Shown: piece by piece, positions 5,758 through 26,777 of the stretch
Numbering within the stretch: position 1 is the first letter of the stretch
How the letters are laid out: every line of letters starts with the position of its first letter
Assembly: GCA_964351475.1 (NCBI GenBank)
Contig: CAYGOB010000001.1
Coordinates: 4,459-68,458 of the forward strand
DNA: 64,000 nucleotides
DNA from: an uncultured Candidatus Saccharibacteria bacterium
Lineage (GTDB): Bacteria > Patescibacteriota > Dojkabacteria > SC72
Reading direction: 5' to 3'
Program-made: the position numbers and the translations under genes
Notes under the pieces: generated by a model
The model's database searches: none
Seen by the model: the letters and a program-made list of their open reading frames with translations, nothing else
What the model was told of the DNA's origin: nothing

Positions 5758-7623
5758 CTATTCATATCTTAAAGCATTAAGAGCTGATATCTTTTTAACT
5801 CTTCTAGCTGGGAATATACCAGTAATTAGACCTACAATTAGGGAAATAAGTAGTATTATTAGTACTAGGGAAATAGGAATGTAGGAGACATCAATACCTT
5901 CAAAACCTCTAAATGCTGAGAACATACTTAACAAAAGACTTAGTGATTTTCCACATAACCAACCCAAAATTAAACCTAGTACCCCTCCTATGAGTCCCAT
6001 AATCATAGACTCTGTAAGGAATAATTCAGATACTTCTTCGGCTTTCATTCCCATAGTTTTCATCAAACCAATTTCTCTAGTTCTTTCTAAAAGAGATACA
6101 GTCAAGGTATTAAACATACCTAAAGAAGCTACGGTTAATGCAATCATACCTACTATAGCTAAGATTATTCTAAATGTAGCAAAAAGAGATCTAATTTGTG
6201 ATACTGTATCAACCACGGACCTAGTAATATATCCCATGGACTCAATAGTATTTCTTGTACTTTCTAAATTATCTGTATCATTCACAACCACTCTTAACTG
6301 AGAATAGTTTGATATCCCTAACTGTCTTAAATCTACAAATGGGACATAAAATAATGGTGTAGACTCATCAGGTATTACACCCAAAATAGTATATTCAGTA
6401 GGTACAGACTCAATTTTCTCTATCTCACTTTCTAGTAAATCACCAACTACTACATATGTTACTTCAAATGTTTTACCTAAAGCATCATTTTCTTCCAAAT
6501 TTAACATCTTTAACATAGACCTGTTTACCACAGCCTCTCTTTCTCCATCAGGTAGTGCAACCCTCTTTAACTTGTATGTGGCTCCTGTTTCAAGCTCCTC
6601 TTCTATCTCTACCCAAGGAAGGGCATTTGTAATACCTAAGACATCTACATATCTTGGGACAAGCTCTTTTATTGTAAGCTCCGGAGTATTTTTGACATAC
6701 CCGACTCTTTGTACTTGCCTATTATTCGCCCTCTGCTCCATATATGTACCCTCACTCTCCTCCCACATATAGAATGTACCCTTGATGTAATCAAAATAAT
6801 CCTTCTTTATTAGTTCCCCATAACTTACACCTTCTACTCTTCTTGTATAACCAATTAATTCCTTTTCATCCTCCAAATTGTCATATACCTCTATCCAAAC
6901 TTCAGGGTCAATTTTGTATGACACATCATTTTCACCAACAAACTCAGATACTCCTTTAACCGCATCTGACTCCACTATCTCTACCACAGTATCATTACTC
7001 TCAAACAATTTACCACTTGTAGGTTGTAAAGCAGATTGTTTAAGATAGTCATGAGTTACTCCATACACAGCCATATCAGATACAGAAGATTTGTAATTCA
7101 CTCTCCCAACTACAGATATCAAAGGTAATGCCTGCTCTACATGAGGTAAATCACTTATTTGAGAAATAGTCCTATCATCAATGTTTAATAATCCTCCTGG
7201 TTGTACAGATACATCAGCTTGTCTCATCTCATTTAAACTCGCAACCCTAGTTATTACTAACTCCTGAAGTCCATATCCAATAGAGACTAAGAATACAATT
7301 GCCCCTATACTAACAGATATCCCCCCTATGGTAATAAGGGTTCTTGCTTTCTTAGCATTCATATTATGCAAAGAAAGCCTAATTAGTTCTAACCTTGATA
7401 TTGTCTCCCCATTATTACTATCTAAAAACTTTCTTAAGAACTCATATGCTGGATGAAATATCTCAGAGGCATCTTTTTTAACAATAGATTTAAATATTTT
7501 TGTGTTTAGTAAACTCTCAAAAAGAAAGATTGTAAGATACAAAATTAGAAGGATGATAAAGGATACAGAATGCCAGATACTATTAAGAATCTCTTTTGTT
7601 TTTACTAATACTTTTTCTCTCAT
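5758..7623 (-). CDS. MacB/FtsX-type ABC transporter permease with a large extracytoplasmic domain.
   Basis: C-terminal FtsX signature [34 protein letters not shown]-terminal TM, then a roughly 400-aa periplasmic domain, then 3 C-terminal TM helices. Start overlaps the stop of the upstream ATPase (ATGA). Confidence 0.85.
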   Translation of the reverse strand: MREKVLVKTKEILNSIWHSVSFIILLILYLTIFLFESLLNTKIFKSIVKKDASEIFHPAYEFLRKFLDSNNGETISRLELIRLSLHNMNAKKARTLITIGGISVSIGAIVFLVSIGYGLQELVITRVASLNEMRQADVSVQPGGLLNIDDRTISQISDLPHVEQALPLISVVGRVNYKSSVSDMAVYGVTHDYLKQSALQPTSGKLFESNDTVVEIVESDAVKGVSEFVGENDVSYKIDPEVWIEVYDNLEDEKELIGYTRRVEGVSYGELIKKDYFDYIKGTFYMWEESEGTYMEQRANNRQVQRVGYVKNTPELTIKELVPRYVDVLGITNALPWVEIEEELETGATYKLKRVALPDGEREAVVNRSMLKMLNLEENDALGKTFEVTYVVVGDLLESEIEKIESVPTEYTILGVIPDESTPLFYVPFVDLRQLGISNYSQLRVVVNDTDNLESTRNTIESMGYITRSVVDTVSQIRSLFATFRIILAIVGMIALTVASLGMFNTLTVSLLERTREIGLMKTMGMKAEEVSELFLTESMIMGLIGGVLGLILGWLCGKSLSLLLSMFSAFRGFEGIDVSYIPISLVLIILLISLIVGLITGIFPARRVKKISALNALRYE

Positions 7624-8363
7624 TGTTTAATCTTTCTTAGATTATTCATTACCTCTTTTGTATTTGTTTTTTCATACACCTTAATTATCTTCCCATCAAA
7701 CATACTAACAGTTCTCTTTGCGTATGATACGTACTCAAGATTGTGTGTAACCATAATCACAGTCTTTTTTTGCTTCTTGTTTAATTCTGTTAGTATATTC
7801 ATTAATTCTTCTCCAGATTGGTAATCTAAGTTACCTGTAGGCTCATCAGCAATAATTATCTCTGGATCGTTTACCAATGCTCTTGCAAGAGATACTTTCT
7901 GTTGTTGTCCACTTGATAGTTCTGAAGGTAGGTATTTGGACCAATCTGTCATTCCTAATTTGTCTATTTTTTCTCTAGCAATTTCCATACCTTTAGACCT
8001 TTCTTCTCCTAGTAGTAATAATGGAAAAAGTACATTTTCTTCTACAGGTATAGATTTGATCCAGTTGGTTTGTTGATATACCATACTAATATATTTTTTT
8101 CTTAATTTGTTTCTTTCTTCTTCTGTACTACCGTTGTAGAGGTGTTTACCTTTAAAAAAGATATTTCCTTTTGTTGGTTCTTCTAAGCCTAGTATTATGT
8201 GTAACAGAGTAGATTTACCACATCCTGATGGTCCGAATATTATAATAAAGTCACCATCTTGAATATCCAAAGATATGTCTTTTAATACAGGGATATCTTG
8301 GTCTCCAACGGTAAAGGATTTGTAGAGGTTTTTTATTTCAATTATTGAGTCAGTTTTCATCAT
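7620..8363 (-). CDS. ABC transporter ATP-binding protein (MacB/LolD-like).
   Basis: Walker [10 protein letters not shown]. Signature LSSGQQQKVSLARAL. Walker [13 protein letters not shown]-loop VTHN. Confidence 0.9.
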   Translation of the reverse strand: MMKTDSIIEIKNLYKSFTVGDQDIPVLKDISLDIQDGDFIIIFGPSGCGKSTLLHIILGLEEPTKGNIFFKGKHLYNGSTEEERNKLRKKYISMVYQQTNWIKSIPVEENVLFPLLLLGEERSKGMEIAREKIDKLGMTDWSKYLPSELSSGQQQKVSLARALVNDPEIIIADEPTGNLDYQSGEELMNILTELNKKQKKTVIMVTHNLEYVSYAKRTVSMFDGKIIKVYEKTNTKEVMNNLRKIKQ

Positions 8364-8443
8364 TCTTAATAATATATATGAATTATTGAATTAGGACAAG
8401 ATTTTAGTTTGATATTGTATACATTCTATAATATATTATATCT

Positions 8444-11400
8444 ATGATTAATGCCCTAAAAGAATATTTTTTAAAGCCAAGATTTCATATATCTAGGTTT
8501 GAGTTTAATTTAATAGGAACACTGTTTTTAACAATAGGATTGGTAGTAGGTACATATTTAGGATTGTACAATGTATTTAAGGGATTAAGAGCATTTAATG
8601 ATACTATACATGTATGGGAGTATAGTGAAGAGAATATATCAGAATATATATATGATGATAGTATAGTAGGTATTAATGATGAAGGATTGTATGCACCATC
8701 TAATAGGTTAGAGAATGGAGGGTTTGAGGAGGGGTTGGGGGGGTGGAGTAAGAAGGGAGAATATATCCTTAATGATGAATTTACTACAGATAGAGTAGCA
8801 GGAGAGGTAGATGGTACATCTGCTGAACCTACTGGGGGAACAAGGACGGTAATTGATTCGGAAGATTTTATTTCTATAGGAGAAGGAGTGTTAAATGTTG
8901 CGGGTGGAACTGGTACTGAAGGAGACCCAGGTCTTTGGTATCCCTTAGCAATAACCAGGATCCCAGGGAGAATGATTGTAGGTACAATAAATCTGTCAAC
9001 ATTAGGAAACACTCGTTTTGGTTTTGACCTTAACACAAGTGGAGGAATTAATTTTGGTATTAATTTTGGGAGTTCTAGTAGTTTGGCTCTTTACGATGGT
9101 TTATCTTCAGTAAACGTTGGGAGTGCATTATCTACTGATACGAATTATCAACTTGCAGTTATTTTACGTTCCACTGGTACATATTATTACATTAAGGGTG
9201 GGACTTTTGTTAACTGGACTCTATTATGGATAAGTGATAATGCCTCAAATAGCACTGTTTATCCCACAATTGTAGGTAGAACTGGAATTTTCACCGCTGA
9301 CAATATCCGTATCCCCACCCAAACCTGGCTACCTACCCCCTTAGTACATGATACATTTACAAGAGTTAATGGTAATGTAGGTAGTAGTGAAATAGTAGGG
9401 CCAGATGGACAAGAAACACCACAGTTACAATGGAGTTCAGGAGAGATAGAAGATAATAGGATGGTTATTAGACCAGAGTTAGGGGAGGAGGTTATCGTAA
9501 ATGGGGATATGTCTTCTTCAGAGGGTTGGAGTGTAGGTTCAGATTGGTCAATAGCCGACGGCATTGCTTCCAAAGTTGCTGGTACTACGAACCAGAATAT
9601 CTCCCAAGGTGTTCTTACTTCGGGATTATGGTACCAGGCAGTTTGGACACTAGAACGTTCAGCTGGTTCTTTCTGGGCCATGTTTGGTACAACTGCTTTG
9701 ACATATAGTCACACTACCTCTGGGACTTTTACTGAAACAGCACGGGCAAATGGGGGAACAGCAGGTATACGTGGACAATCTGTGGCGGAAGGCTCGGTGG
9801 ATAACGTCTCGTATAAACCCCTTACCCTCTCCTCCCTCTTTTCTACAGTTTCAACTTCGGATGCGGATGTGATTGCGGATGTTAATATAACAGTAACCGC
9901 AGGGACACAGGCGGGATTGGTACTGAATTTGGATAACACTTCAAGCCCTGCTAACTTCATCATTGTATATACAAATGGAACCCAAATCCGTGTAGATGAG
10001 GTTGTGAATGGTGTTTATACAAATAAACAGACTACATCATCCACTTTTACATCTGGGAATTTAAGAGTAATTAAAGATGGTACTAAATACAGAGTATATT
10101 ACAACAATGTATTGGTAGGTACTGAACAAACAATAACAGATGAAAGTATAATAAATAATACTAATCATGGACTATTTTCAACCTACGAAGGTAATAGCTT
10201 TGATAATTTTACAATATGGCCAAGAACAGGATTTACAGATGCACCATTTGAAGAATTAACACCAAGTATAGATACAGAAATAAAATACAAAGGTACTAAT
10301 TCAGTAAAACTTCAAACAGGGGGAGTGGATGCTAACTATTTACAAACAACAAACCTAGGAGATACAGAGATATATACATTAACAGGATATGCATATACAG
10401 ATGGTAGTGAAGTAAGTAGTGAAGATATTAGTTTGTATTATGATAATGACATACTAGAAACAAGATATATAGATATGGGAGAAGGATGGTATAAGTTAGA
10501 AGGAGAAGTAATAGGAGAGGATAGTGAAAAGAGTTTTGGAGTAAGAGTAAAAGCAAATAGGACAGTATATATAGATGAGTTTAGTTTGTATAGAAAGATA
10601 AATAGGATAGATAATGGTATGTTTATAAATGGGTTAGAGGGGTGGAATGAGCAATCACCTAGCGACATAGAAGATCTATTAACATGGATAGATTTTTCAG
10701 ACAAAGATACATTATTTATTAATACAGGGGGGACAACTCCTGTTAATGTAGACGGAGATTTAATATATAGGGTAGCAGATAAAAGTGATGGAAATGATTA
10801 TTGGTATGCTATTAGTGCTGGGGTAAGACCTGTATATAAGGAGAACCAGCTCAATGGATTAAGTGCAGCACATTTTCCTGCTGGAAATTATTTAAGAACG
10901 ATTAATAGTTATGGTACTTATAATAAATCCATATTTACAGTAGCAAGACTTTTAATAGATGAAAACAAAAGAAATCTTTACAACAGGGTGTCATATAATT
11001 TTTGGACGCGTGATGGTGCGATACATCTTGGCAGAGATAGCTATATATCTGTGCCTGCTGTTTCTGATACAAACTACATAATTACTGCTTTATGGGATAC
11101 AGGTTCTAATGCTAGGTTAAGGCTCAATCGGGGGATAGAAGAAGCTACAGGAATTGCGGAAGGTTGGGCTTCAAATTATATGTGGCATCTTATGTCTACA
11201 GCAGCTGAAGAAGGAGGAGAAGGATACATATATGAAAGCATTATTTATGACAGGATATTATCAATCGAAGAGTATACAGCAGTTGAGTCATATCTTAATA
11301 ACAAGTGGTTTCTAAACTCTTCTCTCTCAACCACCACCAAATACACCGGTCCCTCCTCCGCCCAACTTCAAACATCAGACTCTGATGCTACCTTCGTCCA

Positions 11401-14400
11401 ATACCTAAACCTAGCTAACACCGACACCTACACCCTTACTGCATACGCATATACAGACGGTAGCCCAGTAACAACCGATGACATTAATCTGTACTTTGAC
11501 AATGACATACTCCCTACAACCTTTTTAGATGCAGGTAATGGTTGGTACAAACTAACAGCTACTCTAACAGCAACAGACTCTTACAAAGCCTTTGGAGTAC
11601 AAGTAAAAGCAAACAAAACAGTAAATGTAGACAATTTTAGTTTAGACAGAGGAGAGCGATATGTAATATATACATCCAATGCATACACAAATGAAACAAT
11701 GACAAGTTGGGATACCTTCTGTGAAGGAGATTTGGAATACCAAACCTGTACCCCTGACTCAACACAAGAAGGCTACTCAGAAATCAGATACCAACTCTGT
11801 ACAGACGATGGGTCAGTGTGTGAAAGTGAAAACAAATGGCAATACTGGAATGGTACAGAGTGGGTAGTAGCAACTGATTTGGACATACACAACAACAGTG
11901 CAAGTGATCTAACCCAACAAGTAATGCAAACAATAGATACGGAAAACAAAAAACTCTCTGTTAAAACAATACTAACCTTTGATGGATACAATCCTCCCAT
12001 ATTACCTAAGGTATCCATAGGACTGAGTGCAGATACAATACCACCAGAGACAAATGCAAGTAACCTAATCATGAAAACACAACCAGGAGGAAGAACCATA
12101 ACTAACGAAGGCTGGAACAATACTCTAATGCCATACATTACCTGGACCCAAGGAGCAGACAACAAAGGAGGCTCAGGCCTTAAAGGCTACTGTGTATACC
12201 TAGGCCAAGATCAAACTGCAGACCCTCAAACTAGTAAAGGAATACTAGGAGAATCTCCAGTAGACTTAGAAACCTCCACCTGTGGATTCATAGTAGAGGA
12301 TAATATACTAGATCTAAGTAATACAGACTACCATTCAGAACCATGGCTAACTAGTTCAACAGAACCCTACTACCTAAAAGTAAAAGCCATAGACAGAGGA
12401 AACAATGTGTACGAAGGAGAAAGTGAAACCTTTACATTCTACATAGATACAACACCTCCTACTAATGTATCCTTCCTTTCTTGTGCTTCAGGTAATTTCT
12501 CTAATGCTTTGGATATGAATTTCTCTTGGCCAACAACAGCAGGCCCAGAAGCAAAAGATGATTACTCAGACATACTAGGTTGGCAATACAAGCTTAATGA
12601 TATTAATGCACAGTGGAAAGGTACTCAAACACACACAGGATTAGAAATTGAATACATACCTCTTGGTCAATCAATATATACCCTTAAACAAAGTGATGCA
12701 GAAACAATCATATCAGGAAGTAATGTAGTTTACTTTAGAAGTGTAGACAATGTAGGTAACTTTTCATCAGGAGCAACCATTAGAACATGTAGCATATCCT
12801 ACGGAGGAGCAGCTCCTAACTTTGAAGATACAGACAAAGTAACAATTACTCCTAATATATCCCAAGACAACCAATACTCTTTAAGCTGGCCAAGTGCCAC
12901 CCCCGCTCCAGAAACCCAAGTATCTAAATACTACTACATGATAAATACAGCTCCTCCCTCAACACTTTCAACCTTAGAAGCAAACCCAGCAACATACATT
13001 AACAATTCAACATCAACAGCAGTACCTTTAAGAGCACTCCCTAATGTAAACAAAGGAGTAAATACAGTGTATGTAGTTTCTGTAGATAACAGTGAGATAC
13101 CTAACTACTCTCCAAGTAATTACATAACAGGAACATTTACTCTTAATTCAACAGACCCAGACAATGTAGGAGATTTAGTAGCATCAGACTCATCCATAAA
13201 GTTAAAATCTCAATGGAATGTAACCCTAACTTGGGTAGTACCAGAATACAAAGGAGCAGGTAATTTAACGTATGAGATATACAGGTCAACTAATGGAGTA
13301 GACTTTACACATGTGGGATCAACCTCAGGACTTTCATATGTAGATAGTGCACCTCAGTCACGTATGTATTTTTACAAGGTATATACTAAAGACGGAGCAA
13401 ATTCTTTAAGTTCAGGGAGCAATGCAGTATCCATAACACCAACAGGAAGATGGACAACGCCACCAGAACTCATATCCGAGCCTGAGGTAGAGAATGTAAC
13501 AACACAAAGAGCAACGATAGTGTGGTCTACATCTAGGTCAGCAGACAGTAGAATTCAGTTTGGAACACAGAGTGGTAAGTATGCAGATGTAGAACCTTCA
13601 ACACCTAATCATGTAACCTCTCATGTAATGTCTCTTTCAGGATTAACCCCTAATACAACATATTTTTACAGAGCAAAATGGACAGATGAGGATGGTAATG
13701 TAGGTATTTCAGAAGAAAAAACATTTACAACAGCACCACCACCGGTAATTAAACAAGTAGAAGTAAGAAATATTGGATTAGAGTCTGCAGTAGTTAACTT
13801 TACATCAGAGGGAGCTTCGGGAGTTAAGATATATTACGGAAGAACATCCTCTTTTGGGGGAATTAGAGAGATATCAACCTCTAGTTTAGAGTCTACCTAT
13901 TCAGTAGAACTCTCTGATTTAGAGGACGGTACTAGATATTACTTTAAGATTAATACTTTAGATGTGGATGGTAGTGAATACGACAACCAGGTTAACGAGT
14001 TCCAAACCTTACCTCGTCCTCGAGTAAGCAATGTAAGATTACAACAGGTATCAGGTACAGCACAAAGTACAATACTAGTAACATGGGATTCAAATACAGA
14101 GATATCATCCATAGTGACATACTGGCCAGAAAACAATCCATCTCAAGCAAGAGATGAGGTATCAGTAGAGTTAAAGAAAGGAGAACACAGAATGATGATT
14201 AGAGGATTAGAACCTACAACTGCATACAATCTCCAAGTAAAAGGAAGAGACAAGATGGGTAATGAGGCTGTATCAGATACCCAAAGATTTACAACAGCAA
14301 CAGATACAAGACCTCCAGTAATTACAGATTTAAGAGTAGAAGGTTCAACCATCCCTCCATTTGCAACAACAGCCCAACAGACCTCAGTACAGATAGTGGT

Positions 14401-14692
14401 ATCATGGACAACAGATGAGCCAGCTACAAGTCAGGTAGAGTTTGGAGAGGGTACAGGTAGTACGTATGCACAAAGAACACAGAAGGATTCTAATTTTAGT
14501 TACAATCATACAGTAGTAATATCTAACTTAGTACCATCTCAGGTATATCATCTTAGAGCAGTATCAGAGGATATGGCAGGTAATGTAGGGTATTCCATAG
14601 ATGTAGTAACAATAGCACCTAAGGTAACAGACAATGCCCTAGATTTAGTAATACAGAATTTAATGGAGACATTTAGATTTTTAAGAAGGTAG
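8444..14692 (+). CDS. Giant (2082 aa) signal-anchored surface protein. It has an N-terminal ConA/LamG-like region, two CBM-like jelly-roll modules, an Ig/Fn3-like central region and four C-terminal purple-acid-phosphatase-N-type Fn3 domains.
   Basis: N-terminal TM (LIGTLFLTIGLVVGTYLGLY). Two internal paralogous modules (KYKGTNSVKLQTGG...FGVRVKANRTVYIDEFSL and KYTGPSSAQLQTSD...FGVQVKANKTVNVDNFSL). Four repeats of the type ATIVWSTSRSADSRIQFG...YFYRAKWTDEDGN...TFTTA. The C-terminal ~1000 aa are collinear with ORF 21535-24630. Confidence 0.8.
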   Translation: MINALKEYFLKPRFHISRFEFNLIGTLFLTIGLVVGTYLGLYNVFKGLRAFNDTIHVWEYSEENISEYIYDDSIVGINDEGLYAPSNRLENGGFEEGLGGWSKKGEYILNDEFTTDRVAGEVDGTSAEPTGGTRTVIDSEDFISIGEGVLNVAGGTGTEGDPGLWYPLAITRIPGRMIVGTINLSTLGNTRFGFDLNTSGGINFGINFGSSSSLALYDGLSSVNVGSALSTDTNYQLAVILRSTGTYYYIKGGTFVNWTLLWISDNASNSTVYPTIVGRTGIFTADNIRIPTQTWLPTPLVHDTFTRVNGNVGSSEIVGPDGQETPQLQWSSGEIEDNRMVIRPELGEEVIVNGDMSSSEGWSVGSDWSIADGIASKVAGTTNQNISQGVLTSGLWYQAVWTLERSAGSFWAMFGTTALTYSHTTSGTFTETARANGGTAGIRGQSVAEGSVDNVSYKPLTLSSLFSTVSTSDADVIADVNITVTAGTQAGLVLNLDNTSSPANFIIVYTNGTQIRVDEVVNGVYTNKQTTSSTFTSGNLRVIKDGTKYRVYYNNVLVGTEQTITDESIINNTNHGLFSTYEGNSFDNFTIWPRTGFTDAPFEELTPSIDTEIKYKGTNSVKLQTGGVDANYLQTTNLGDTEIYTLTGYAYTDGSEVSSEDISLYYDNDILETRYIDMGEGWYKLEGEVIGEDSEKSFGVRVKANRTVYIDEFSLYRKINRIDNGMFINGLEGWNEQSPSDIEDLLTWIDFSDKDTLFINTGGTTPVNVDGDLIYRVADKSDGNDYWYAISAGVRPVYKENQLNGLSAAHFPAGNYLRTINSYGTYNKSIFTVARLLIDENKRNLYNRVSYNFWTRDGAIHLGRDSYISVPAVSDTNYIITALWDTGSNARLRLNRGIEEATGIAEGWASNYMWHLMSTAAEEGGEGYIYESIIYDRILSIEEYTAVESYLNNKWFLNSSLSTTTKYTGPSSAQLQTSDSDATFVQYLNLANTDTYTLTAYAYTDGSPVTTDDINLYFDNDILPTTFLDAGNGWYKLTATLTATDSYKAFGVQVKANKTVNVDNFSLDRGERYVIYTSNAYTNETMTSWDTFCEGDLEYQTCTPDSTQEGYSEIRYQLCTDDGSVCESENKWQYWNGTEWVVATDLDIHNNSASDLTQQVMQTIDTENKKLSVKTILTFDGYNPPILPKVSIGLSADTIPPETNASNLIMKTQPGGRTITNEGWNNTLMPYITWTQGADNKGGSGLKGYCVYLGQDQTADPQTSKGILGESPVDLETSTCGFIVEDNILDLSNTDYHSEPWLTSSTEPYYLKVKAIDRGNNVYEGESETFTFYIDTTPPTNVSFLSCASGNFSNALDMNFSWPTTAGPEAKDDYSDILGWQYKLNDINAQWKGTQTHTGLEIEYIPLGQSIYTLKQSDAETIISGSNVVYFRSVDNVGNFSSGATIRTCSISYGGAAPNFEDTDKVTITPNISQDNQYSLSWPSATPAPETQVSKYYYMINTAPPSTLSTLEANPATYINNSTSTAVPLRALPNVNKGVNTVYVVSVDNSEIPNYSPSNYITGTFTLNSTDPDNVGDLVASDSSIKLKSQWNVTLTWVVPEYKGAGNLTYEIYRSTNGVDFTHVGSTSGLSYVDSAPQSRMYFYKVYTKDGANSLSSGSNAVSITPTGRWTTPPELISEPEVENVTTQRATIVWSTSRSADSRIQFGTQSGKYADVEPSTPNHVTSHVMSLSGLTPNTTYFYRAKWTDEDGNVGISEEKTFTTAPPPVIKQVEVRNIGLESAVVNFTSEGASGVKIYYGRTSSFGGIREISTSSLESTYSVELSDLEDGTRYYFKINTLDVDGSEYDNQVNEFQTLPRPRVSNVRLQQVSGTAQSTILVTWDSNTEISSIVTYWPENNPSQARDEVSVELKKGEHRMMIRGLEPTTAYNLQVKGRDKMGNEAVSDTQRFTTATDTRPPVITDLRVEGSTIPPFATTAQQTSVQIVVSWTTDEPATSQVEFGEGTGSTYAQRTQKDSNFSYNHTVVISNLVPSQVYHLRAVSEDMAGNVGYSIDVVTIAPKVTDNALDLVIQNLMETFRFLRR

Positions 14693-14901: not shown

Positions 14902-14948
14902 AAAAAAGGGGAAAAAAAGGTGTCCAACTTTTGATATAATGGACATAC

Positions 14949-16042: not shown

Positions 16043-16052
16043 GTATAGTGGA

Positions 16053-18231: not shown

Positions 18232-18336
18232 TGAAAAGCCCCACTAAACTTATTAATTACAACATAATTGTAATCTTTTATATTTTAAGGGTTTTAAGGA
18301 GAAATGTCAATTTTTGAAGGTTTTCTACTAATGATT

Positions 18337-18391
18337 GATATTGGCGGGACATACACGTCTGGAACCTAGAATGAGACAAATAAGACAGTAT
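18337..18391 (+). repeat. Interspersed promoter-bearing repeat, copy G (right half plus a short left stub).
   Basis: gatattggcgggacatacacgtctggaacctagaatgagacaaataagacagtat, followed by aaaaaggggaggg. Upstream of the DGR target gene. Confidence 0.7.
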
Positions 18392-18514
18392 AAAAAGGGG
18401 AGGGTATATGTCTCAAATTTGTTTTTTGAACCTTTTGTGAATAAGTTGGGATGCAAGTATGCAACCGACACATCTTCTTGCAAAATATTTTTATTTCTTG
18501 TAAATTATACTAGG

Positions 18515-19393
18515 ATGCAAAAAACAAACAAGAATAAAGAGATGACCAAGTTAGAAACAGTACTAATTATTTTGATAGCCATAGCAACTATTGGATCATT
18601 TCTGGCAGGAAGGGCAGTAGCAGAACAACATGAGGGTACTCCTAAAGCAGATTCAACCTCAATAATAAAACAACTATCCGATGACCTTACAGCACTAGGA
18701 TACGGTTCAACTGAACCAGGTAGTTGGGGCAATGCTGGTGAAATGTGGAATAGGATATATTCAGCAGGAGTATGGGTACCATCTTTAGCAGATGCTCAGG
18801 ACTCAGATGTAGTATCTGGAAAACAATTCTATTCAGGCTCTGACCGCACATTGAGAACAGGCTCTTTTCAAACTATAGATTGGGAGAAACAATCTCTACT
18901 TCAAATGGATAACAGGGATAGTACAGACTATGGAGAGACAAGTAGTTGGGACAAGACTAATAATAGCCCAGAGGTTTGGTATGATGAGGTAACAGGTTTG
19001 TATTGGAGTGCAAGTCAGGGTAGTATGGCAAATGATTTTGTAAGGTCTACCTGTGATTTTTACACTACAGTCCCAAGAGGAGATTATAATGGGGGGGATG
19101 AGAGTTGTGATGCCGCAATAAATCATTGTGCAACATTGAGCCTAGCTACACATACAAATGCTTCAGCAAAGACAGATTGGTATTTACCATCTCAGATAGA
19201 GTTAATGCAGGCATACATAAATGGAATATACAAGAAGACCAGTACTGGTTGGGTTACTACAAGCCAATTTTGGTCTAGTACCGAGTTTCAGAGTTATCCT
19301 ACTATTGCATGGGGCACTTACCTAGGTAATGGACAGACGAGCCCTCATACTAAGACCACGAGCCTCGCTGTTAGGTGTGTTCTCCGGGATTAA
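18515..19393 (+). CDS. DGR target (variable) protein: signal-anchored, with a C-terminal DUF1566 (Lcl-C / C-type-lectin-like) domain carrying the variable region.
   Basis: DUF1566 signature DWYLPSQIELMQAY...FWSSTE...AWGTYLGNG...TSLAVRCVLRD. The track ORF starts at 18335 inside repeat copy G, so the start is more likely the M at 18515 (MQKTNKNKEMTKLETVLIILIAIATIGSFLAG). The last 123 nt are homologous to the TR. Confidence 0.8.
   Translation: MQKTNKNKEMTKLETVLIILIAIATIGSFLAGRAVAEQHEGTPKADSTSIIKQLSDDLTALGYGSTEPGSWGNAGEMWNRIYSAGVWVPSLADAQDSDVVSGKQFYSGSDRTLRTGSFQTIDWEKQSLLQMDNRDSTDYGETSSWDKTNNSPEVWYDEVTGLYWSASQGSMANDFVRSTCDFYTTVPRGDYNGGDESCDAAINHCATLSLATHTNASAKTDWYLPSQIELMQAYINGIYKKTSTGWVTTSQFWSSTEFQSYPTIAWGTYLGNGQTSPHTKTTSLAVRCVLRD
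19267..19389 (+). other. DGR variable region (VR) at the 3' end of the target gene.
   Basis: 123-bp homology to 19721-19843. About 19 of 20 mismatches fall at positions that are A in the TR. The last 41 bp (19349-19389) are identical to the TR. Confidence 0.85.
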
Positions 19394-19483: not shown

Positions 19484-19505
19484 TACAGTGTATTTATACA
19501 CTGTA
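19484..19505 (+). terminator. Perfect 9-bp palindrome hairpin downstream of the VR (tacagtgta-ttta-tacactgta) followed by an AT-rich tract.
   Basis: Seen directly. Weak intrinsic terminator for the target gene, or the DGR VR-proximal structural element. Confidence 0.35.
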
Positions 19506-19720
19506 ATTTAAAATTTAAAAAATTCCTTGCAACATACTAATTAATATGCAACAATTATCATAAGCAAGATCTTACAATCTCAACTCCAAAGATGAGCAAT
19601 GGGTTGTGAGGGAGGCATAATATTTAATCCTACTTGCTGTACCTATTAGGTAATGTTATACAAAGAATCTTCTGTTTAATACATCAGGTTCTTGGTGGAT
19701 TTAAAAATTAGCAAGTTTAG

Positions 19721-19843
19721 ATTTTGGTCTAGTACCGAGAATCAGAATAATACAACTAATGCATGGAACACTAACCTAAATAATGGAAATACGAACAATA
19801 ATACTAAGACCACGAGCCTCGCTGTTAGGTGTGTTCTCCGGGA
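19721..19843 (+). repeat. DGR template repeat (TR).
   Basis: Homologous to the VR. The TR is dense in AAT/AAC codons and reads FWSSTENQNNTTNAWNTNLNNGNTNNNTKTTSLAVRCVLRE in the VR frame. Track ORF 19692-19892 is this TR, not a gene. Confidence 0.85.
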
Positions 19844-19852
19844 GAAGATATT

Positions 19853-20215
19853 ATGCCTCAGGCAAATAATACAGACAAACCCTTATATTTAGCTGTGTAC
19901 AAGCTCATTATCTATCTGTATAGTATAGTTCACAATCTTCCAAAAGAACATAAGTATAGATTAGGAAATGACATCATAGACATTAGTTGGAAGACCCTAG
20001 ATTCCATAATGTACACAAATACATTAGGAAACGAAGATAAACATATCCAGATAAAGAAAACCTTAGCAATATTTAATACCTTAAAATATAGGTTAAGGGT
20101 TTTAAGTGATTTAAAACTCTTAAGTCATAGGCAATATGCACACATAATTAAACAAACGGTAGAAATAAATAAAATGCTAAGGGGTTGGTACAATTGGTCT
20201 AAAAAACTTGTATGA
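19853..20215 (+). CDS. avd: Avd-like accessory variability determinant (small four-helix-bundle protein).
   Basis: About 121 aa, basic and helical (YKLIIYLYSIVHNLPKEHKYRLGNDI...LKLLSHRQYAHIIKQTVEINKMLRGW). Sits immediately 3' of the TR, the position typical of DGR avd. Start chosen at the M after a GGGAGAAG SD-like stretch. Confidence 0.55.
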   Translation: MPQANNTDKPLYLAVYKLIIYLYSIVHNLPKEHKYRLGNDIIDISWKTLDSIMYTNTLGNEDKHIQIKKTLAIFNTLKYRLRVLSDLKLLSHRQYAHIIKQTVEINKMLRGWYNWSKKLV

Positions 20216-21382
20216 GTCTTGAGGTTCTAAATAGGACTTCAGTATCCCAAAATGCTTTTCATATATATTCTTCCTTAAACGATACGAGTTACTCCATCTT
20301 AGGTGTCCAAAAGTAGAGTTAATACTTGTACAGATAGATTCAAGATCTTCTTTAGAAGGAGGTAATTTAATCTGGACAGCCTCTTCAATACAAAAACGTC
20401 TGTTTATGAGAAAACCGTTATTAAAGTAATGTAATTTTTTCTTCAGATTTCCAACTGTCCTGTTTCTGGATAGTATATATTCTGGTCTAATAACATATCC
20501 TACAAAATCAATCCCCTGATACACGCTACCATAGGTGGTTTTTTCTTTCTTTGTATTTAGTTTTAATTTTTCTAAAAGAAAATTCTCTGTTAGTTTCTCT
20601 GCTTTTTGTAATTCTTTTATGTTATTACTAATCAAAAGCATGTCATCGGCGTATCTTAAATAGTATTTGATTTTTAATTGACGCTTAATGAATTGATCTA
20701 CTTCATTTAGATACAAATTAGCAAAAAACTGTGAAGTCAAGTTCCCTATAGCTAAACCTTTCTTTTTGGGTATAGTAAAGAGGCTTTTACCTTTGGGTAG
20801 AAGCTGTAAGAGTGTTTTGTCTCCCTGTAATTCGAAGTCTTGGCAGGGGTTGTGATAAATGATCTTCATAGAAAGCCACGTTAGGTCGTCAATATCTTTT
20901 GTTGGCATAGGAAGTTTTGAGAGATCCTTCAAAAGTATTTGAGCAAGTATATCTTTATCTATGGAGTAGAAGAAACTTCTAATATCCATTTTAAGGTAAT
21001 ATGCTTTAGAGGTATTATTATGTGTGATCTTATTAAGAAAACTAGATGTTCGTTGAACACCTAGTAAGCCACCTTTATTTTTTCTACAAGCAAGAGAGTC
21101 AAAGATAAATTTTTTATCTATTTCATCTTGAATGTACATGATTAGTAAGTGATGAATAATTCTGTCGTTAAAGTAGGCGGCAAATATTTCACGAATGGTA
21201 GGGTAAGATATTACAAAGCATGAGGAGGTCCCTATTTCATAACTTTTTTCTCTGAGAGCAGTTGATAGGATGTGGAGGGTGTCTTCATAATCTAATTCAC
21301 AATAGAGTGCATGATTACTATTTCTTTTGCCTTTTCTACAAGAATAATATGCTCTAAGTAAGGATGAGAGATTAAAAATCAT
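20177..21382 (-). CDS. DGR reverse transcriptase.
   Basis: RT motifs: LAIGNLTSQFFANLYLNEVD (the DGR-specific I/LGxxxSQ motif 4, in place of the group II intron QGxxxSP) and YLRYADDMLLI (YADD catalytic box). 401 aa. Adjacent to the TR/avd. Confidence 0.9.
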   Translation of the reverse strand: MIFNLSSLLRAYYSCRKGKRNSNHALYCELDYEDTLHILSTALREKSYEIGTSSCFVISYPTIREIFAAYFNDRIIHHLLIMYIQDEIDKKFIFDSLACRKNKGGLLGVQRTSSFLNKITHNNTSKAYYLKMDIRSFFYSIDKDILAQILLKDLSKLPMPTKDIDDLTWLSMKIIYHNPCQDFELQGDKTLLQLLPKGKSLFTIPKKKGLAIGNLTSQFFANLYLNEVDQFIKRQLKIKYYLRYADDMLLISNNIKELQKAEKLTENFLLEKLKLNTKKEKTTYGSVYQGIDFVGYVIRPEYILSRNRTVGNLKKKLHYFNNGFLINRRFCIEEAVQIKLPPSKEDLESICTSINSTFGHLRWSNSYRLRKNIYEKHFGILKSYLEPQDSYKFFRPIVPTP

Positions 21383-21534
21383 CTCTGATATTATATCATT
21401 AGGTCCTTGGGATTAACACAAAACTAATTTTCTTCTATTTGCCGTACTCTATTTTTAAAAAGACTCAATGTGTTAAACTCTATATAGTCTGTATTCTTGT
21501 CTTTTAAGCGATCTAATGCTAAACTTTTTCTAAC

Positions 21535-24500
21535 ATGAAAAAACCTGTCCGGATAAATATAAAAATACCAGCATTAACGTTACTCCTCTTCGCTATTATA
21601 GGTATATCAATATTCTTCCTCTCCAGAGTATATGCTACCAACCAAACTCCAATTAAAGGAAGTGCTACTGTACTAAATACCTCTAATGAAATATTCTTTA
21701 CCTCTAGTGTATATGGAGCTAACGTAGTAATATCGGATCCAGACCCCGAAGATGAAAACAAACGTACAATCTCTGGATATGCATGGTCTCAAGATATTGG
21801 GTGGATAAAGTTTACTGCAGGAGAATCCCCTGGGGTATTTGTAGATTATGCAACAGGACAAGTAAGTGGTTCTGCCCATGTAATGAACACAGGTAATGAA
21901 ATTAAATTTGATTCTAACAACAGTAATACAATTGTTAATACAAATACTGGAGTATTTAGTGGATATGTTTGGTCTGAGGATGTAGGGTGGATAGATTTGG
22001 GAACAGACCAAGTATATGTCCAAGACACACTACCTCCTCACAACCCAGATGAAATATCAATATATTCAGATGGAAGTAGAACAAAAGAGATTGTGATTTT
22101 GGAAGGAAATGTTTACAACTACAGTAATCCCCATATAGAGTGGGAAGAACCCATAGATCCCAGCACAGAATCTCACGGTTATCAGTCTAGTGGCATATCA
22201 GGATACTACGTATATTGGGGGCCAAGTAATACAGCTATACCCACAAGCTCAGGTACTTTTCAAACAGATAATTACATAGATGTAGAAGTAACCCAAAGTG
22301 GTATGCACTACTTAAACATTCAAGCAGTAGACAATCACGGAAATATACATACCAATCCTGAACATGAATATACTGTTTTAGAGTACAAAGCAGACATTAT
22401 TCCCCCAACCAATGTTAAATACATAACTACACCAAGTGGAAATTTTGGAAATGTTAATGACATGTTCTTTAGTTGGCCAAGTGCTCCAGGAGTAGCAAGC
22501 AGTGATGAAAATGGAATACTCGGATGGCAGTACAGTCTTAACGATGTCAGCAGTTGGACAGGAACCCACGAAAGTGAAAGATTTGACCTTGAGTACATAC
22601 CATTTGAAGATACTACCTACTCCCACTACTTTACAGAAGAAAAAGACCTGGGAAATATGGTAGTAGGTAACAACATCATATATTTTAGAACCATAGACAA
22701 TGCAGGCAATTTTAGTGGGTATATATCTGGAGGAATCTCATACGGAGGTTTGGCTCCTACCTTTGGAGAAGAACACAATGTGACTGTAACTCCCAACACC
22801 AACACCTCTAACGAATTCTCTCTCTCATGGCCCTCTGCCACACCAGAGGAGGGAAGAACCATAGTCTCATATTACTATATGATAAATAGAACACCTCCTA
22901 GCACATACAATACTTTAGTAGACAACCCCTCTCTTTATGTCCCTGTTACAACAACATCTGTATCTACAAGGATGTTAAACGGAGCCGTAAAAGGAAGCAA
23001 CACAGTATATGTCGTAGCTGTAGATGACTTAGATGGATACTCTCCAAGCAACTTTATTACTGGCACATTTACCCTTAACAGCACTCTCCCAGACCCTGTA
23101 ATTAACCTAAGTATAGCAGACACCTCAATACGTGAAGCCAAACTATGGAGAGCAAGTTTAACTTGGGAGGCTCCTGCTTACAAAGGAGATGGTAACCTCT
23201 CCTACGTTATACAAAGAAGCCTAAATGGTAGTACATGGGCTACGGTAGGTTCAACAACAGGAACGTCATTTTCTGACATTGTCCCAGAAAGTAGAACATA
23301 CTATTACAGAATAGGGGTCTCTGATGGTTCTGACCAAAGCATAGCAAATCCAACCCCCTCAACCACAGTATCCTCCTTTATTCAAGGAAGATACACAGAA
23401 GCACCAGAGTTACTCTCTGGAATCATAGTATCTAATGTCGGAACAAGAAAAGCTACAATATCGTGGGTAACAAGTAGAGAAAGTGATACTAAAATTGCAT
23501 TCGGACTAAGTAGTAATGACTACTTTGAAGAAGAAGTATACAGTTCAAAACAGGTAACAGAGCATGAAATAACGCTACATAATCTCCAACCTGAAACGAC
23601 ATACTACTTCAAAGCCAGATGGACAGACCAAGACGGCAATACAGGAGAAAGCAAAGAAGTCTCCTTTAGAACAACTGACTCTCCCCAAGTTTACTCTTCA
23701 AATGTAGATATGGTTGGGCTAGATTATGCCATAATATCCTTTGAGGTCTTTGGTGCTAGCAAAGCAGCCGTAGTATATGGAAGGTCTCTAGCATATACAG
23801 CAATTGAAGAGATAAACACCTCTCCTGCAAGAAGCAAATACTCTGTAGTTTTGGAAGACCTAGACGATGGGGTTGAATACAATTTCAAAATTAGGTTAAC
23901 AGATGCAGATGGATATATCTATGACTCCATAGAAAACAACGTCTTTAGAACACCTCCTAGACCACAGATATCGAATGTACGAGTACAAGAATTAAGAGAG
24001 GTAGCAAGTCCCACAGTCGTATTTAGTTGGGAAACAAATACACATACTAACTCAATAGTTAGATTTAGAGAAGATTTTGAAGGTGCAAGAGAAAGAGACC
24101 AAGTAAGTATGGAAAAAATAAAGGGAGAGCATGAGATGACATTAACAGGACTGGATTCAGAAACCCCATATATTGCCTATGTAGAAGGAGTAGATGACTA
24201 TGGTAACAAAGCAGTATCCGAGGGCGTGAGATTTACTACCGATGTAGATACCAGGCCGCCTAAAATATTGAATGTGAAAATTGAGCAGGACTTACAAGGT
24301 CGCTCTGTACAAACTGACAGAAGCAGAAGTGCCCAATTCATTATTAGTTGGGAAACGGATGAACCAGCAACAAGCAAGATAAATTATGGAGAAGGAGGGG
24401 GAGGAGCATATACCTCTAGTTCAAGATTAGACCAAGAGTACAGAATGAAACATCTTGTCATAGTATCTGGTCTAACACCTTCAAAAGTATATAGTTTAGA

Positions 24501-24630
24501 AATTGAATCCACCGATCCATCAGGAAACACAGGCAGATACGGTCCACTAGTATCCATAACTCCAAAATCTGCTAATACTGTTTTAGAAACAATACTCAAT
24601 ACTATGTCAAATATGTTTAATATATTCTAA
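21535..24630 (+). CDS. Large (1031 aa) secreted Fn3/PAP-N-repeat surface protein, paralogous to the C-terminal half of ORF 8444-14692.
   Basis: Signal anchor (ALTLLLFAIIGISIFFL). Collinear similarity to 8444-14692, for example IPPTNVKYITTPSGNFGNVNDMFFSWPS...GWQYSLND...YFRTIDNAGNFS...SYYYMINRTPPSTY...TGTFTLNST, and four ATISWVTSRESDTKIAFG-type domains. Its stop overlaps the start of the downstream ABC gene. Confidence 0.8.
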   Translation: MKKPVRINIKIPALTLLLFAIIGISIFFLSRVYATNQTPIKGSATVLNTSNEIFFTSSVYGANVVISDPDPEDENKRTISGYAWSQDIGWIKFTAGESPGVFVDYATGQVSGSAHVMNTGNEIKFDSNNSNTIVNTNTGVFSGYVWSEDVGWIDLGTDQVYVQDTLPPHNPDEISIYSDGSRTKEIVILEGNVYNYSNPHIEWEEPIDPSTESHGYQSSGISGYYVYWGPSNTAIPTSSGTFQTDNYIDVEVTQSGMHYLNIQAVDNHGNIHTNPEHEYTVLEYKADIIPPTNVKYITTPSGNFGNVNDMFFSWPSAPGVASSDENGILGWQYSLNDVSSWTGTHESERFDLEYIPFEDTTYSHYFTEEKDLGNMVVGNNIIYFRTIDNAGNFSGYISGGISYGGLAPTFGEEHNVTVTPNTNTSNEFSLSWPSATPEEGRTIVSYYYMINRTPPSTYNTLVDNPSLYVPVTTTSVSTRMLNGAVKGSNTVYVVAVDDLDGYSPSNFITGTFTLNSTLPDPVINLSIADTSIREAKLWRASLTWEAPAYKGDGNLSYVIQRSLNGSTWATVGSTTGTSFSDIVPESRTYYYRIGVSDGSDQSIANPTPSTTVSSFIQGRYTEAPELLSGIIVSNVGTRKATISWVTSRESDTKIAFGLSSNDYFEEEVYSSKQVTEHEITLHNLQPETTYYFKARWTDQDGNTGESKEVSFRTTDSPQVYSSNVDMVGLDYAIISFEVFGASKAAVVYGRSLAYTAIEEINTSPARSKYSVVLEDLDDGVEYNFKIRLTDADGYIYDSIENNVFRTPPRPQISNVRVQELREVASPTVVFSWETNTHTNSIVRFREDFEGARERDQVSMEKIKGEHEMTLTGLDSETPYIAYVEGVDDYGNKAVSEGVRFTTDVDTRPPKILNVKIEQDLQGRSVQTDRSRSAQFIISWETDEPATSKINYGEGGGGAYTSSSRLDQEYRMKHLVIVSGLTPSKVYSLEIESTDPSGNTGRYGPLVSITPKSANTVLETILNTMSNMFNIF

Positions 24631-26777
24631 TGCCAAAAAAGAAACTAATAAGTGTTAAAAATATAAATAAGAGCTTTCTCCTAGGTAAAAGAAGAAACAA
24701 TGTTCTTAAAGATATAAATCTAGATATCTATTCTGGTCAACTAACAAATATCTTTGGACCATCAGGATGTGGTAAATCTACACTTCTAAACGTCATCATG
24801 GGTATAGAGAAGCCAGATACAGGCATTGTAAAGATACATGACGAAGATCTATGGAAGAAAAACACCGACGAACAAGCAGACATAAGAAAAAGAGAAATTG
24901 GAATAGTATATCAACAACAAAACTGGGTAAGGTCATTGACAGTCATAGAAAACGTTGCTCTTTCTGCACAGCTCTTAGGGTTTGGTAAGGCAGAATCCTT
25001 ACAAAGGGCACAAGAGGTATTAAAAGAAGTGGGAATGTTTAAATTTAGAAACTTCTACACCTCAGAACTCTCCTCAGGAGAACAACAAAGGGTTGGTTTA
25101 GCAAGAGCCCTCATAGCCGACCCAGAAATTATCCTAGCAGATGAGCCAACAGGGAACCTGGATACAGAAAATGGGGATGAGGTTGTTAAAATATTGAAGA
25201 GTTTAGCTAAAAAAGGCAAAGCTGTAGTTTTAGTAAGTCACAATCCCGAATATTTGGACACTTCTGACACTATAGTAATTATGAAAGATGGCTATATCAT
25301 TGACTCTCTCAAACAACAAGAGGGAATTGTAAAAAAAGTTAGAACTATTTTAGCCCAAACAGAATTAAACAACGAAGAGAAAATCTTTGAAAATGCTAGG
25401 AGCAAACCAAACATATCTCAACCATACTATCCCACAGAAACCCTATTTGAGAAAATCAAAGTATATTCTAGGTTAATTTACAGCTTCTTTTACAAATCTT
25501 TGCTACTTTTTGTAATATCTGCTCTTACAATTTTCAATCCTACTAAAGCAGAAGAATTTAGAAAGAAAGCAACTGTTACAGGGGAGAATAATATCCCTAT
25601 CCTAGATCTAACAGAGCTCTCTTTTAAAAACCTTTTCTTTAAAAAATTCAGAACGGTAGTAACAATATTGGGAGTAGGATTAGGTACGGGTTTTGTAGTT
25701 TTACTTCTCTCACTGGGTTACGGTATGGAGAGGTTAGTTATTGATCAGATAACAGCGGCAGAAGACTTAAGTCAGGTTGATGTTTTTCCTAAAGTTGGAA
25801 GCCAATTAGAACTAACCGATGCACTTATTGAGAAGATTGCAGGTATATCTGGAATAGATACAATATATAGAATAAAAAACTTCCCAGGGAGGATAGATTA
25901 CAAAGGCTCTACAGTAGATGTAGTAGTGTATGGAGTAGAGTTTGAATATTTAGAAAATTCTCCTGTTAGAAAAGTGGCAGGTGAATTCTTAGAAGAAGAG
26001 TCAGACAAATACTCTGCAATTGTTAACAAAGAATATGTTGATTTACTAGGGTTGTTGGGGGATGACGTAGTAGGAGAGAGATTAGATTTAAGTGTCATTC
26101 AGTCCATGCCACAGGAAGACAGTGAGCCTCAAAACATTCTAGCCCAGGTATTAGGTGTTGTTGAAGATGATTCTCCTCCTGTCGTATATCTTAAAATGGG
26201 CTCAGTTAGGGACTATACCACTGATGAGTATTCTGAATTGACAATAGTTGTTAACAGAGATGTTTCCTTGGAGGTAGTTAGAAAGCAGATAGAGTCTTTA
26301 GGGTTAGAGACTTTTTCTGTAATGGATACAATAGAGCAAGTACAAAACATTTTCACCTATGTAAGATATGGGTTGTTAGGTTTTGGGGTATTGGCTTTTG
26401 CCATAGCATTTTTAGGTATGATAAATACATTGGTTGTTTCATTACTTGAAAGAACTAGAGAGGTTGGGTTATTAAAAATTATTGGTATGAAGAGAAATGA
26501 TATTAGGTTTTTGTTCATAATTGAGTCTATGTTTATTGGACTTTTGGGGGGTATAACAGGTGTTATTCTGGGTGTTCTTGGTGGATATTTAGTATCTATA
26601 CTGATATATCTTTTCTCAATGTCAAGAGGTGTAGAGTTTATGATAATTTCATCTTTCCCCCTCCTTATGATGATACTTGTTGTTTTTTGTACAACGATGT
26701 TAGGTTTCTTTACAGGTCTTTACCCAGCAAATAGGGCTGTTAAGATACCTCCTCTTGATGCAATTAGGTATGAGTAA
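24630..26777 (+). CDS. MacB-type ABC exporter, fused ATPase plus FtsX-permease.
   Basis: N-terminal Walker [10 protein letters not shown], signature [15 protein letters not shown], Walker [13 protein letters not shown]-terminal FtsX signature [31 protein letters not shown]. Translationally coupled to the upstream gene (TAATG). Confidence 0.85.

Follow-up and report, generated by a model that had tools for sequence, protein, structure and literature searches.

An operon joining a modular surface fibre to a dedicated type VII ABC system, probably an attachment device, recurs across Patescibacteria

A large part of bacterial diversity belongs to the Patescibacteria, which seem to live attached to other cells; to our knowledge, little is known of how they attach beyond type IV pili. 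We analysed a 64,000-nucleotide (nt) stretch of DNA from an uncultured Candidatus Saccharibacteria bacterium placed by GTDB in Dojkabacteria (GCA_964351475.1, contig CAYGOB010000001.1, positions 4,459 to 68,458 of the forward strand), called the window below. It carries two cassettes, A and B, in which a giant protein built of immunoglobulin-like (Ig) and fibronectin type III (Fn3) domains adjoins an ATP-binding cassette (ABC) ATPase and permease, and the question it raises is what an ABC system does for a giant surface protein. All five open reading frames (ORFs) of the cassettes were recovered in the window (Table 1). We show that they are two anciently diverged copies of a Patescibacteria-wide operon encoding a modular surface fibre and a dedicated type VII (MacB/FtsX-fold) ABC system, which probably works not as a drug pump but as an attachment device serviced by ATP.

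Giant A has 2082 residues (8444-14692) and giant B 1031 (21535-24630). An initial annotation, made from the sequence alone, had described their C-terminal ~1000 residues as collinear paralogues. The paralogy stands, since residues 1230-2080 of giant A align collinearly with 199-1031 of giant B at 41% identity over 867 columns (BLASTP, E=0), and the shared length comes down to ~850 residues. Pfam (Pur_ac_phosph_N and fn3 in both giants) and, for giant B, an AlphaFold2 (AF2) model likewise recovered the proposed Fn3 domains, whereas the ending TTAxDxRPP, attributed to all four of them, is restricted to one domain per giant, as TT(A/D)xDTRPP; the others end in FTTAPPP, F(Q/R)T(L/P)PRP or ITPK. 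The layout was as first described: ORFs and Pfam place giant A divergent from a split ATPase and permease, giant B is coupled to a fused ATPase–permease, and a diversity-generating retroelement (DGR) lies between the cassettes, with its variable repeat (VR), template repeat (TR), bAvd and reverse transcriptase (RT) at 19267-21382.

A profile of the conserved giant module identified at least 532 confirmed stretches in species-representative genomes. The best 80 of these, together with context look-ups, gave 82 non-redundant loci from many candidate phyla radiation (CPR) lineages, whose ORFs were called and searched with the window proteins. Among the 87 giants in these loci plus the window, 72 are followed directly 3' on the same strand by an ATPase and then a permease (56 split, 16 fused), with divergent ABC genes as in cassette A beside five and upstream ABC genes beside two. 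No ABC was seen for the remaining eight, each of which misses a flank at a contig or locus edge, and no locus with both flanks available lacked one. The spacing is tight: from giant stop to ATPase start the median is 2 nt, with ≤10 nt in 64 of 72 cases and overlap in 23. In cassette B the stop and start overlap as TAATG (TAA 24628-24630, ATG 24630-24632, context ...TTCTAATGCC...). Reverse look-ups from three permease homologues on long contigs found an Fn3 giant directly upstream in all three. Orthologues of the fused ATPase–permease occur in loci L001, L007, L008 and L009, and the divergent layout of cassette A recurs in L013 and L015. Adjacency is therefore conserved, and the lack of conservation that the initial annotation had named as evidence against a dedicated relationship was not observed. 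The relationship it had proposed holds up in the same-strand and reverse counts and in the congruent clades described below, and the co-occurrence of such pairs that it had asked about is near-universal across CPR relatives; a dedicated giant–ABC partnership is thus well supported.

The ABC proteins beside each giant are MacB-like, as first noted: Pfam finds MacB_PCD, FtsX and ABC_tran, all three within one ORF at 24630-26777. Pairwise, the ATPases of A and B are 47% identical and the permeases 33-39%. Permease A comprises an N-terminal hydrophobic helix, four transmembrane (TM) helices and an extracytoplasmic domain (ECD) of ~340 residues (MacB_PCD) with an extra beta-rich insert. In the ATPase alignment the Walker A motif, signature LSSGQQQK, Walker B IIIADEPT with its glutamate and H-loop VTHN are intact, so that catalytic competence is predicted. 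The defining features of type VII ABC systems are present, namely an FtsX-type four-TM bundle, a large MacB_PCD ECD between TM1 and TM2, and an ATPase that belongs to the LolD/MacB/FtsE subfamily and keeps its catalytic motifs.

No giant-linked ABC protein reached a curated NCBIfam cut-off. The top ATPase matches (LolD, MacB, FtsE and DevA) all fell below theirs. Scores were 241 bits against 966 for the MacB equivalog, 86 against 362 for the LolCE model TIGR02212 and 34-39 against 225-255 for the FtsX models. The giant-linked proteins score 200-600 bits among themselves but only ~80-110 bits against the second, short (~420-aa) MacB-like pairs at L001, L005 and L007, evidence that they form a subfamily of their own; a grouping with generic pumps, the other outcome named beforehand as telling against the proposal, was not found. 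The recurrent neighbours in the 82 loci and the Pfam-scanned window ORFs include no adaptor of the membrane fusion protein (MFP)/MacA/HlyD type and no outer-membrane channel. Familiar machines fit poorly. A MacAB–TolC tripartite pump lacks its adaptor and channel here and its MacB score; FtsEX is contradicted by the low FtsX score, the ~340-aa ECD and the all-beta fibre next door; and LolCDE by its sub-threshold LolCE score and a cargo without a lipobox cysteine. The ten-TM permease with an ECD between TM7 and TM8 and the intramembrane-sensing kinase of BceAB were not found, and the MacB-type ABC and N-terminal hydrophobic signal or anchor of the cargo do not match a type I secretion adhesin.

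The split of cassettes A and B into different old clades is seen alike for giant, ATPase and permease. For all three proteins, cassette B groups with L001, L007, L008 and L009 (53-72% identity), a clade with fused ABC genes and giants of ~1030 residues, and cassette A groups with the main split clade (50-63%). Between A and B, the same comparison gave 43% identity for the giant, 46% for the ATPase and 35% for the permease. Given these low identities and the congruent clades, the duplication or acquisition must be old and have involved the whole cassette. Distance matrices correlate at 0.67 for giant and ATPase, 0.71 for giant and permease, and 0.88 for ATPase and permease.

Co-divergence is concentrated at one end of the giant. 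We cut the conserved module into segments (giant B numbering) and compared the divergence of each with that of the ABC parts. Residues 807-1010 correlate with the permease ECD, the permease TM domain and the ATPase at r = 0.86, 0.90 and 0.84 (partial r given the ATPase, 0.55-0.63), and the tail, 1005-1031, at 0.82, 0.84 and 0.79 (partial r 0.49-0.52). The two segments spanning 197-615, in contrast, reach only 0.29-0.38, 0.25-0.32 and 0.31-0.39, with partial r ~0. Because r is 0.8-0.9 at the C-terminal base and ~0.3 upstream, the base goes with the ABC system; the last two Fn3 domains and tail are inherited with it and may be co-evolving with it, and the upstream domains are shuffled.

Across the family, giants of 1000-3200 residues share one plan: a signal peptide or anchor is followed by a variable head, by about ten Ig/Fn3 domains and by a tail at the C-terminus that is amphipathic and conserved. 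Conservation increases towards the C-terminus. The AF2 model of giant B (predicted local distance difference test, pLDDT, 83) places a TM helix at residues 11-33, with beta strands after it. It contains about ten beta-sandwich domains, the final four of which (~625-1010) resemble Fn3 or purple acid phosphatase N-terminal domains, and a terminal helix at 1016-1028. The tails, VTDNALDLVIQNLMETFRFLRR in giant A (14624-14689) and SANTVLETILNTMSNMFNIF in giant B (24568-24627), carry the motif ITPK..AL.LV...L...FgFL, which recurs in every clade, Saccharimonadia included; they are amphipathic (hydrophobic moment 0.37-0.51) and contain no TM segment. Every complete relative has an N-terminal hydrophobic segment, signal or anchor. 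In main-clade giants, A among them, a conserved PRFHFSRFQFNL motif precedes a TM segment and FALNDT; in giant A the PRFHISRFEFNL motif and TM segment, common to main-clade relatives, occupy residues ~10-45. Clade-B giants have an ordinary cleavable-looking signal peptide without that motif (residues 1-34, ...SRVYA/TN, in giant B).

The heads are highly variable and modular, with LamG, DUF2341, RCC1, FG-GAP/VCBS and FGE-sulfatase-type lectin domains among relatives. Giant A has a head of ~1180 residues with an internal duplication (10535-10594/11591-11650), and giant B one of ~165 residues with repeated GYAWSxDIGWI motifs conserved in clade-B orthologues; no significant Pfam family was found in the former, searched as six segments, or in the latter. 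A CBM/LamG-like look of motifs in the giant A head (NGGFEEGLGGW...VYIDEFSL) was set aside as an impression without Pfam support. NCBIfam holds no curated family for the giants, for the Lcl_C protein described below or for ORFs 3573 and 4392, a PDB sequence search with giant B returned no match, and a Foldseek search of its model against the PDB gave only generic Ig/Fn3 arrays (MyBP-C, contactin, gp130 and the GhpA base), which are uninformative. Both giants lack an N-terminal lipobox cysteine and an [LIV]Px[TSA]G motif, and their tails, unlike those in LPXTG sortase anchoring, are not TM segments. Anchoring of the giants by sortase was rejected, since they lack LPXTG and the sortase in the window is not conserved near relatives of the cassette. 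Fibre paralogues are many in the class Saccharimonadia; no TM7x or Southlakia name occurs among the best 120 matches, few of which give a source name.

The DGR recurs beside the cassette as a partner and is no bystander. At 18335-21382 the window holds an RT, a bAvd, an adenine-biased TR/VR pair and a VR in a target of C-type-lectin fold. VR (19267-19400) and TR (19721-19854, plus strand) are 84% identical over 134 nt, and 18 of their 22 mismatches fall at TR adenines. Pfam finds bAvd at 19829-20215 (plus strand, 4.8e-15) and the RT at 20177-21382 (minus strand, RVT_1 3.6e-17), the latter divergent from giant B across a 152-nt gap. The target, a secreted Lcl_C (DUF1566) protein, likely starts at M61 (18515), a methionine followed in the translation by a signal peptide. 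Among relatives, 23 loci have RT and Avd no more than 10 kb from the giant. The VR is inside the giant head in 9-12 of these and elsewhere, as in the window, in a separate adjacent Lcl_C protein.

In nine loci (L021, L024, L032, L035, L037, L040, L043, L044 and L049), ordered Avd-TR-RT-giant-ABC, the VR lies within the giant ~1.0-1.2 kb from the gene start, and TR adenines account for 13-17 of 15-18 mismatches. A VR usually lies at the C-terminus; here it sits ~350-400 residues from the N-terminus of a ~1500-aa giant and is followed by a stalk of >1100 residues. L049 is an example (TR 6462-6580, VR 9036-9154, giant 7943-12577), and in L024 the VR closes an FGE-sulfatase (C-type-lectin) domain at residues 186-384. 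A separate Lcl_C gene, in most cases together with RT and Avd, lies ~5 kb or less from the short-head giant (≤1100 residues) in 11 of 11 informative cases (window B, L001, L003, L007, L008, L009, L011, L012, L014, L065 and L092). Simple gene fission, with the Lcl_C target as a split-off lectin head of main-clade giants, was rejected because BLASTP found no similarity between the window Lcl_C protein and those heads; the two are different lectin-fold subtypes. Two further observations concern the DGRs. In the window, bAvd and RT are convergent and overlap by ~39 nt, a layout also found in L007, L009 and L011. In L026 (~9125-9241), L045 (9045-9164) and L072 (4524-4644) the VR spans an apparent frameshift between a head ORF and a stalk ORF; the split may be genuine or may have arisen in assembling a hypervariable population.

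What, then, does the ABC system do for the fibre? The choice between anchoring or actuation and export or extraction is one that we infer only. The best overall explanation, to which we assign a probability of roughly one half, is that the fibre base is held at the membrane, the ABC system acts on it mechanically and the DGR retargets the head. The fibre would be exported by Sec, and its C-terminal base (the last two Fn3 domains and tail) would remain at the membrane, where it would engage the permease dimer through the ECD or the outer-leaflet face. An Fn3 domain is ~3.5-4 nm long, so that ten of them would carry the variable head outward to ~35-40 nm from the membrane. Through mechanotransmission, as FtsEX acts on EnvC/PcsB, the ATPase would do mechanical work on the base, perhaps holding, inserting, repositioning or releasing the fibre, and would pump no small molecules. 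Retargeting by the DGR would act in cis where the giant head carries the VR and, in the window, probably in trans through the secreted Lcl_C protein beside cassette B.

Several points weigh against this explanation. In cassette A the giant and the ABC genes are divergent, not co-transcribed, and the terminal helix of giant B is modelled with low confidence (pLDDT <50). The N-terminal motif and TM segment of main-clade giants, giant A included, could equally be the site that the ABC system recognizes, and a TM segment left uncleaved would put the head, not the base, at the membrane. Co-divergence could also stem from gene proximity combined with head-shuffling recombination instead of protein contact, because the C-terminus is the gene-proximal end in most loci and linkage alone could then explain the pattern.

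The main rival, possible though distinctly less likely, is export or extraction. The ABC system would be needed only transiently, either to pull the N-terminal signal-anchor or the C-terminal helix from the membrane in a Lol-like manner, or to push the fibre through the wall or S-layer as Aat/MacB does, after which the fibre would be released or held otherwise. The conserved N-terminal motif and TM segment of main-clade giants would suit such a role. Extraction is opposed by the missing lipobox cysteine, by the LolCE score, by the co-divergence of the ABC system with the C-terminal base and, furthermore, by clade-B giants, which keep the ABC system despite an ordinary signal peptide and no N-terminal motif.

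It is unlikely that the fibre is a DGR-variable adhesin by which a conjugative apparatus or a type IV secretion system (T4SS) contacts mating partners or target cells, the cassette being an accessory to mobile T4SS clusters and the window copies chromosomal descendants of such elements. T4SS or relaxase genes (relaxase, VirD4-like, VirB4/TraG-like, T4SS pilin) surround 8 of 82 loci (L003, L018, L024, L025, L032, L035, L037 and L045), seven of which have a DGR; L091 runs Avd-RT-giant-ABC-TrbC-TrbL-VirB4-like-M23; and the nearest relatives of cassette A are labelled as other CPR classes, which is consistent with transfer. This suggests that in ~10% of relatives the cassette is carried on, or cooperates with, a conjugative or type IV secretion cluster. 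Against it, ~90% of loci and the window have no nearby T4SS genes, and the window context is housekeeping. Because it concerns the role of the head more than the fibre–ABC mechanism, this rival can coexist with mechanical action on a membrane-held base.

The last two readings are poorly supported. It is improbable that the fibre is an antenna whose ABC system reports ligand or envelope stress to a two-component system, as in BceAB–BceS, although a kinase, a response regulator or both flank 17 of 82 loci and lie 2.2 kb from cassette A in the window; regulation of cassette A by this OmpR-type regulator and kinase is possible, and their membership in the cassette is uncertain. Least probable is a generic antimicrobial-peptide or drug efflux pump merely beside a surface-protein gene: source annotations ('ABC-type antimicrobial peptide transport system permease'), the ties of the nearest solved relatives (YtrF, Spr0695 and YknZ) to cell-wall or peptide stress and a paper placing patescibacterial macB genes under defence (PMC12455944) favour it, but across deep CPR lineages the genes are almost always adjacent and often overlap, fibre and ABC clades are congruent, the ABC system co-diverges with the fibre base, and the shorter, only distantly related MacB-like pairs co-exist with the giant-linked ones at L001, L005 and L007.

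We found no description of the operon in the literature on CPR bacteria, within which papers on CPR DGRs were covered incompletely. Its parts are of known kinds; the conserved combination of a type VII ABC system and a giant tailed fibre, often with a DGR, appears to be undescribed. The operon is a conserved, phylum-wide candidate attachment apparatus in which labour is clearly divided between a head that can be swapped or hypermutated, a stalk and base that are conserved, and an ATPase, and it links DGR targets to a membrane machine. Hundreds of CPR genes labelled 'antimicrobial peptide ABC permease' are probably misannotated and, if mechanical action on the base is right, the fibres would be a new class of partner for MacB-fold mechanotransducers. 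A more specific picture, which we put forward as speculative and doubtful, is a capture organelle of episymbiotic CPR bacteria that is powered by ATP and can be retargeted, and whose MacB-type motor would hold, actuate or release a ~40 nm fibre with a DGR-hypermutated head. Just as tentatively, head variation would come from a C-type-lectin head in cis or from Lcl_C proteins docking in trans on short-head fibres such as giant B. If true, this would give type VII ABC systems a new task and the enigmatic CPR DGR targets their first cell-surface context.

Table 1. Coordinates of the two cassettes and associated features in the window.
Feature	Coordinates	Strand	Details and evidence
Permease, cassette A	5758..7623	-	621 aa; MacB_PCD + FtsX by Pfam
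ATPase, cassette A	7620..8363	-	247 aa; 4-nt overlap with permease start; ABC_tran 5.8e-34
Divergent intergenic region, ATPase A/giant A	8364..8443		80 nt, from ORF coordinates
Giant A, N-terminal part (anchor + head)	8444..12130	+	Translation; N-terminal motif in relatives
Giant A, conserved C-terminal Ig/Fn3 module	12131..14692	+	Residues 1230-2082; Pur_ac_phosph_N 1.1e-18
DGR target, secreted Lcl_C (DUF1566) protein	18335..19393	+	Lcl_C 1.7e-12
DGR core	19721..21382		TR, bAvd, RT
Giant B, signal peptide + small head	21535..22128	+	Translation; AF2; clade-B orthologues
Giant B, conserved Ig/Fn3 module	22129..24630	+	Residues 199-1031; family core
Fused ATPase–permease, cassette B	24630..26777	+	715 aa; ABC_tran 4e-35, MacB_PCD 1.2e-18, FtsX 3.1e-18
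OmpR-type response regulator; histidine kinase	1757-2467; 2436-3548	+	Upstream of cassette A; Pfam

The wider window has a G+C content of ~35%, and the genes surrounding the cassettes are housekeeping ones, including tRNA synthetases, RecA and enolase (Pfam, window ORFs). The closest relatives of both cassettes come from Candidatus Dojkabacteria (WS6), Microgenomates and other Patescibacteria. Because just two relatives were found in 2.9 million viral contigs, the cassette is a cellular feature, and a phage origin was rejected. A promoter shared by ATPase A and giant A is presumed to lie in the region between them. The cassettes are separated by genes for a NUDIX protein, RNase T, a sortase and an ice-binding-like protein, followed by the complete DGR.

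Other observations concern the related loci and the neighbouring genes. Several giants per genome are common (L015, 3886-12337; L017, 3-12304; the contigs of P0244/P0245, P0263/P0267 and P0260/P0277), and in L015 one divergent ABC pair serves two tandem giants. Loci with plainly patescibacterial genes are titled Pseudomonadales, Gammaproteobacteria, Bdellovibrionales, Anaerolineae, Omnitrophota or TM6 (L012, L014, L030, L032, L035, L037, L046, L052, L064 and others); such titles probably reflect mislabelled or misbinned metagenome-assembled genomes. The window encodes a third Fn3/Pur_ac_phosph_N protein (55968-58100, minus strand; 710 residues, N-terminal TM segment) with no ABC neighbour, which falls outside the giant family (no BLAST match >60 bits). 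The sortase gene (16576-17172, plus strand) adjoins that of the ice-binding-like (PF11999) protein (17266-18231, minus strand). This protein combines a signal peptide with a hydrophobic helix and basic tail at its C-terminus; it lacks a canonical LPXTG but might be recognized by the sortase through a non-standard motif. In related loci, both genes are absent from the vicinity of the cassette.

A ~90-nt element is present in four same-strand copies (5470-5504, 14856-14890, 16083-16117 and 18346-18380; none expected by chance; full element, for example, 14819-14907). It holds the palindrome GACATGCATGTC, a direct repeat GAGACA-N4-AGACAG, a TATAAA box and a GGGGGAG Shine–Dalgarno-like run, and lies 5' of the NUDIX gene, in the gap after RNase T upstream of the sortase, ~110 nt upstream of where Lcl_C likely starts and in the gap that follows ORF 4392-5351. 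Rfam gave no match for it in 14600-21600; it may serve as a leader or as a promoter or operator common to these sites, possibly for the OmpR-type regulator. Further along, one ORF (27541-28629) fuses Sua5/YrdC (TsaC-type) with TsaE and is followed by TsaD (28601-29731), an unusual fusion within a compact t6A operon (27541-29731).

Among known systems, FtsEX with EnvC, PcsB, CwlO or RipC is similar in its MacB-fold four-TM permease with an ECD, its LolD/FtsE-type ATPase and its lack of adaptor and channel. FtsEX acts on an extracytoplasmic protein partner and transports no solute. The cassettes differ in that the partner is a 1000-3200-aa Ig/Fn3 fibre with an amphipathic tail rather than a coiled-coil hydrolase activator, its gene is fused into the operon, and the permease ECD measures 230-500 residues, against ~100-130 in FtsX. 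YtrEF (Bacillus subtilis, 9o9x), Spr0694-0695 (Streptococcus pneumoniae, 5xu1) and YknYZ have ~400-aa permeases of ~24-26% identity and are associated with cell-wall or peptide stress; none has a gene for a giant fibre beside it. MacAB–TolC, the Aat dispersin exporter and LolCDE have the same fold, and some of them move proteins or peptides already outside the cytoplasm; they require a MacA/HlyD-type adaptor and outer-membrane channel, or lipoprotein cargo and LolA, none of which occurs in the cassettes. CPR cells are regarded as single-membrane.

The RTX/Ig-repeat adhesins LapA and SiiE, exported by type I secretion, also pair a giant Ig-like adhesin with a dedicated ABC system and have an important C-terminal end, but their exporter is HlyB-type (ABC_membrane) with an MFP and TolC, and their cargo lacks an N-terminal signal, whereas the cassettes combine a MacB-type ABC system with a Sec-type N-terminus. 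With the DGR proteins Mtd, TvpA and LdtA and the CPR clade-2 targets, the DGRs here share the RT, bAvd and adenine-specific TR/VR changes, and the target fold, Lcl_C/DUF1566 or FGE-sulfatase-type C-type-lectin, is that of known DGR variable proteins; in many relatives, unlike in usual targets, the VR is internal and followed by a stalk. According to Roux et al. 2021, CPR DGR targets typically carry no recognizable membrane or other domains, and the abundant DGRs of Patescibacteria diversify proteins without known cellular context (PMC8144416); the targets described here, by contrast, lie within or beside a membrane-based fibre–ABC cassette.

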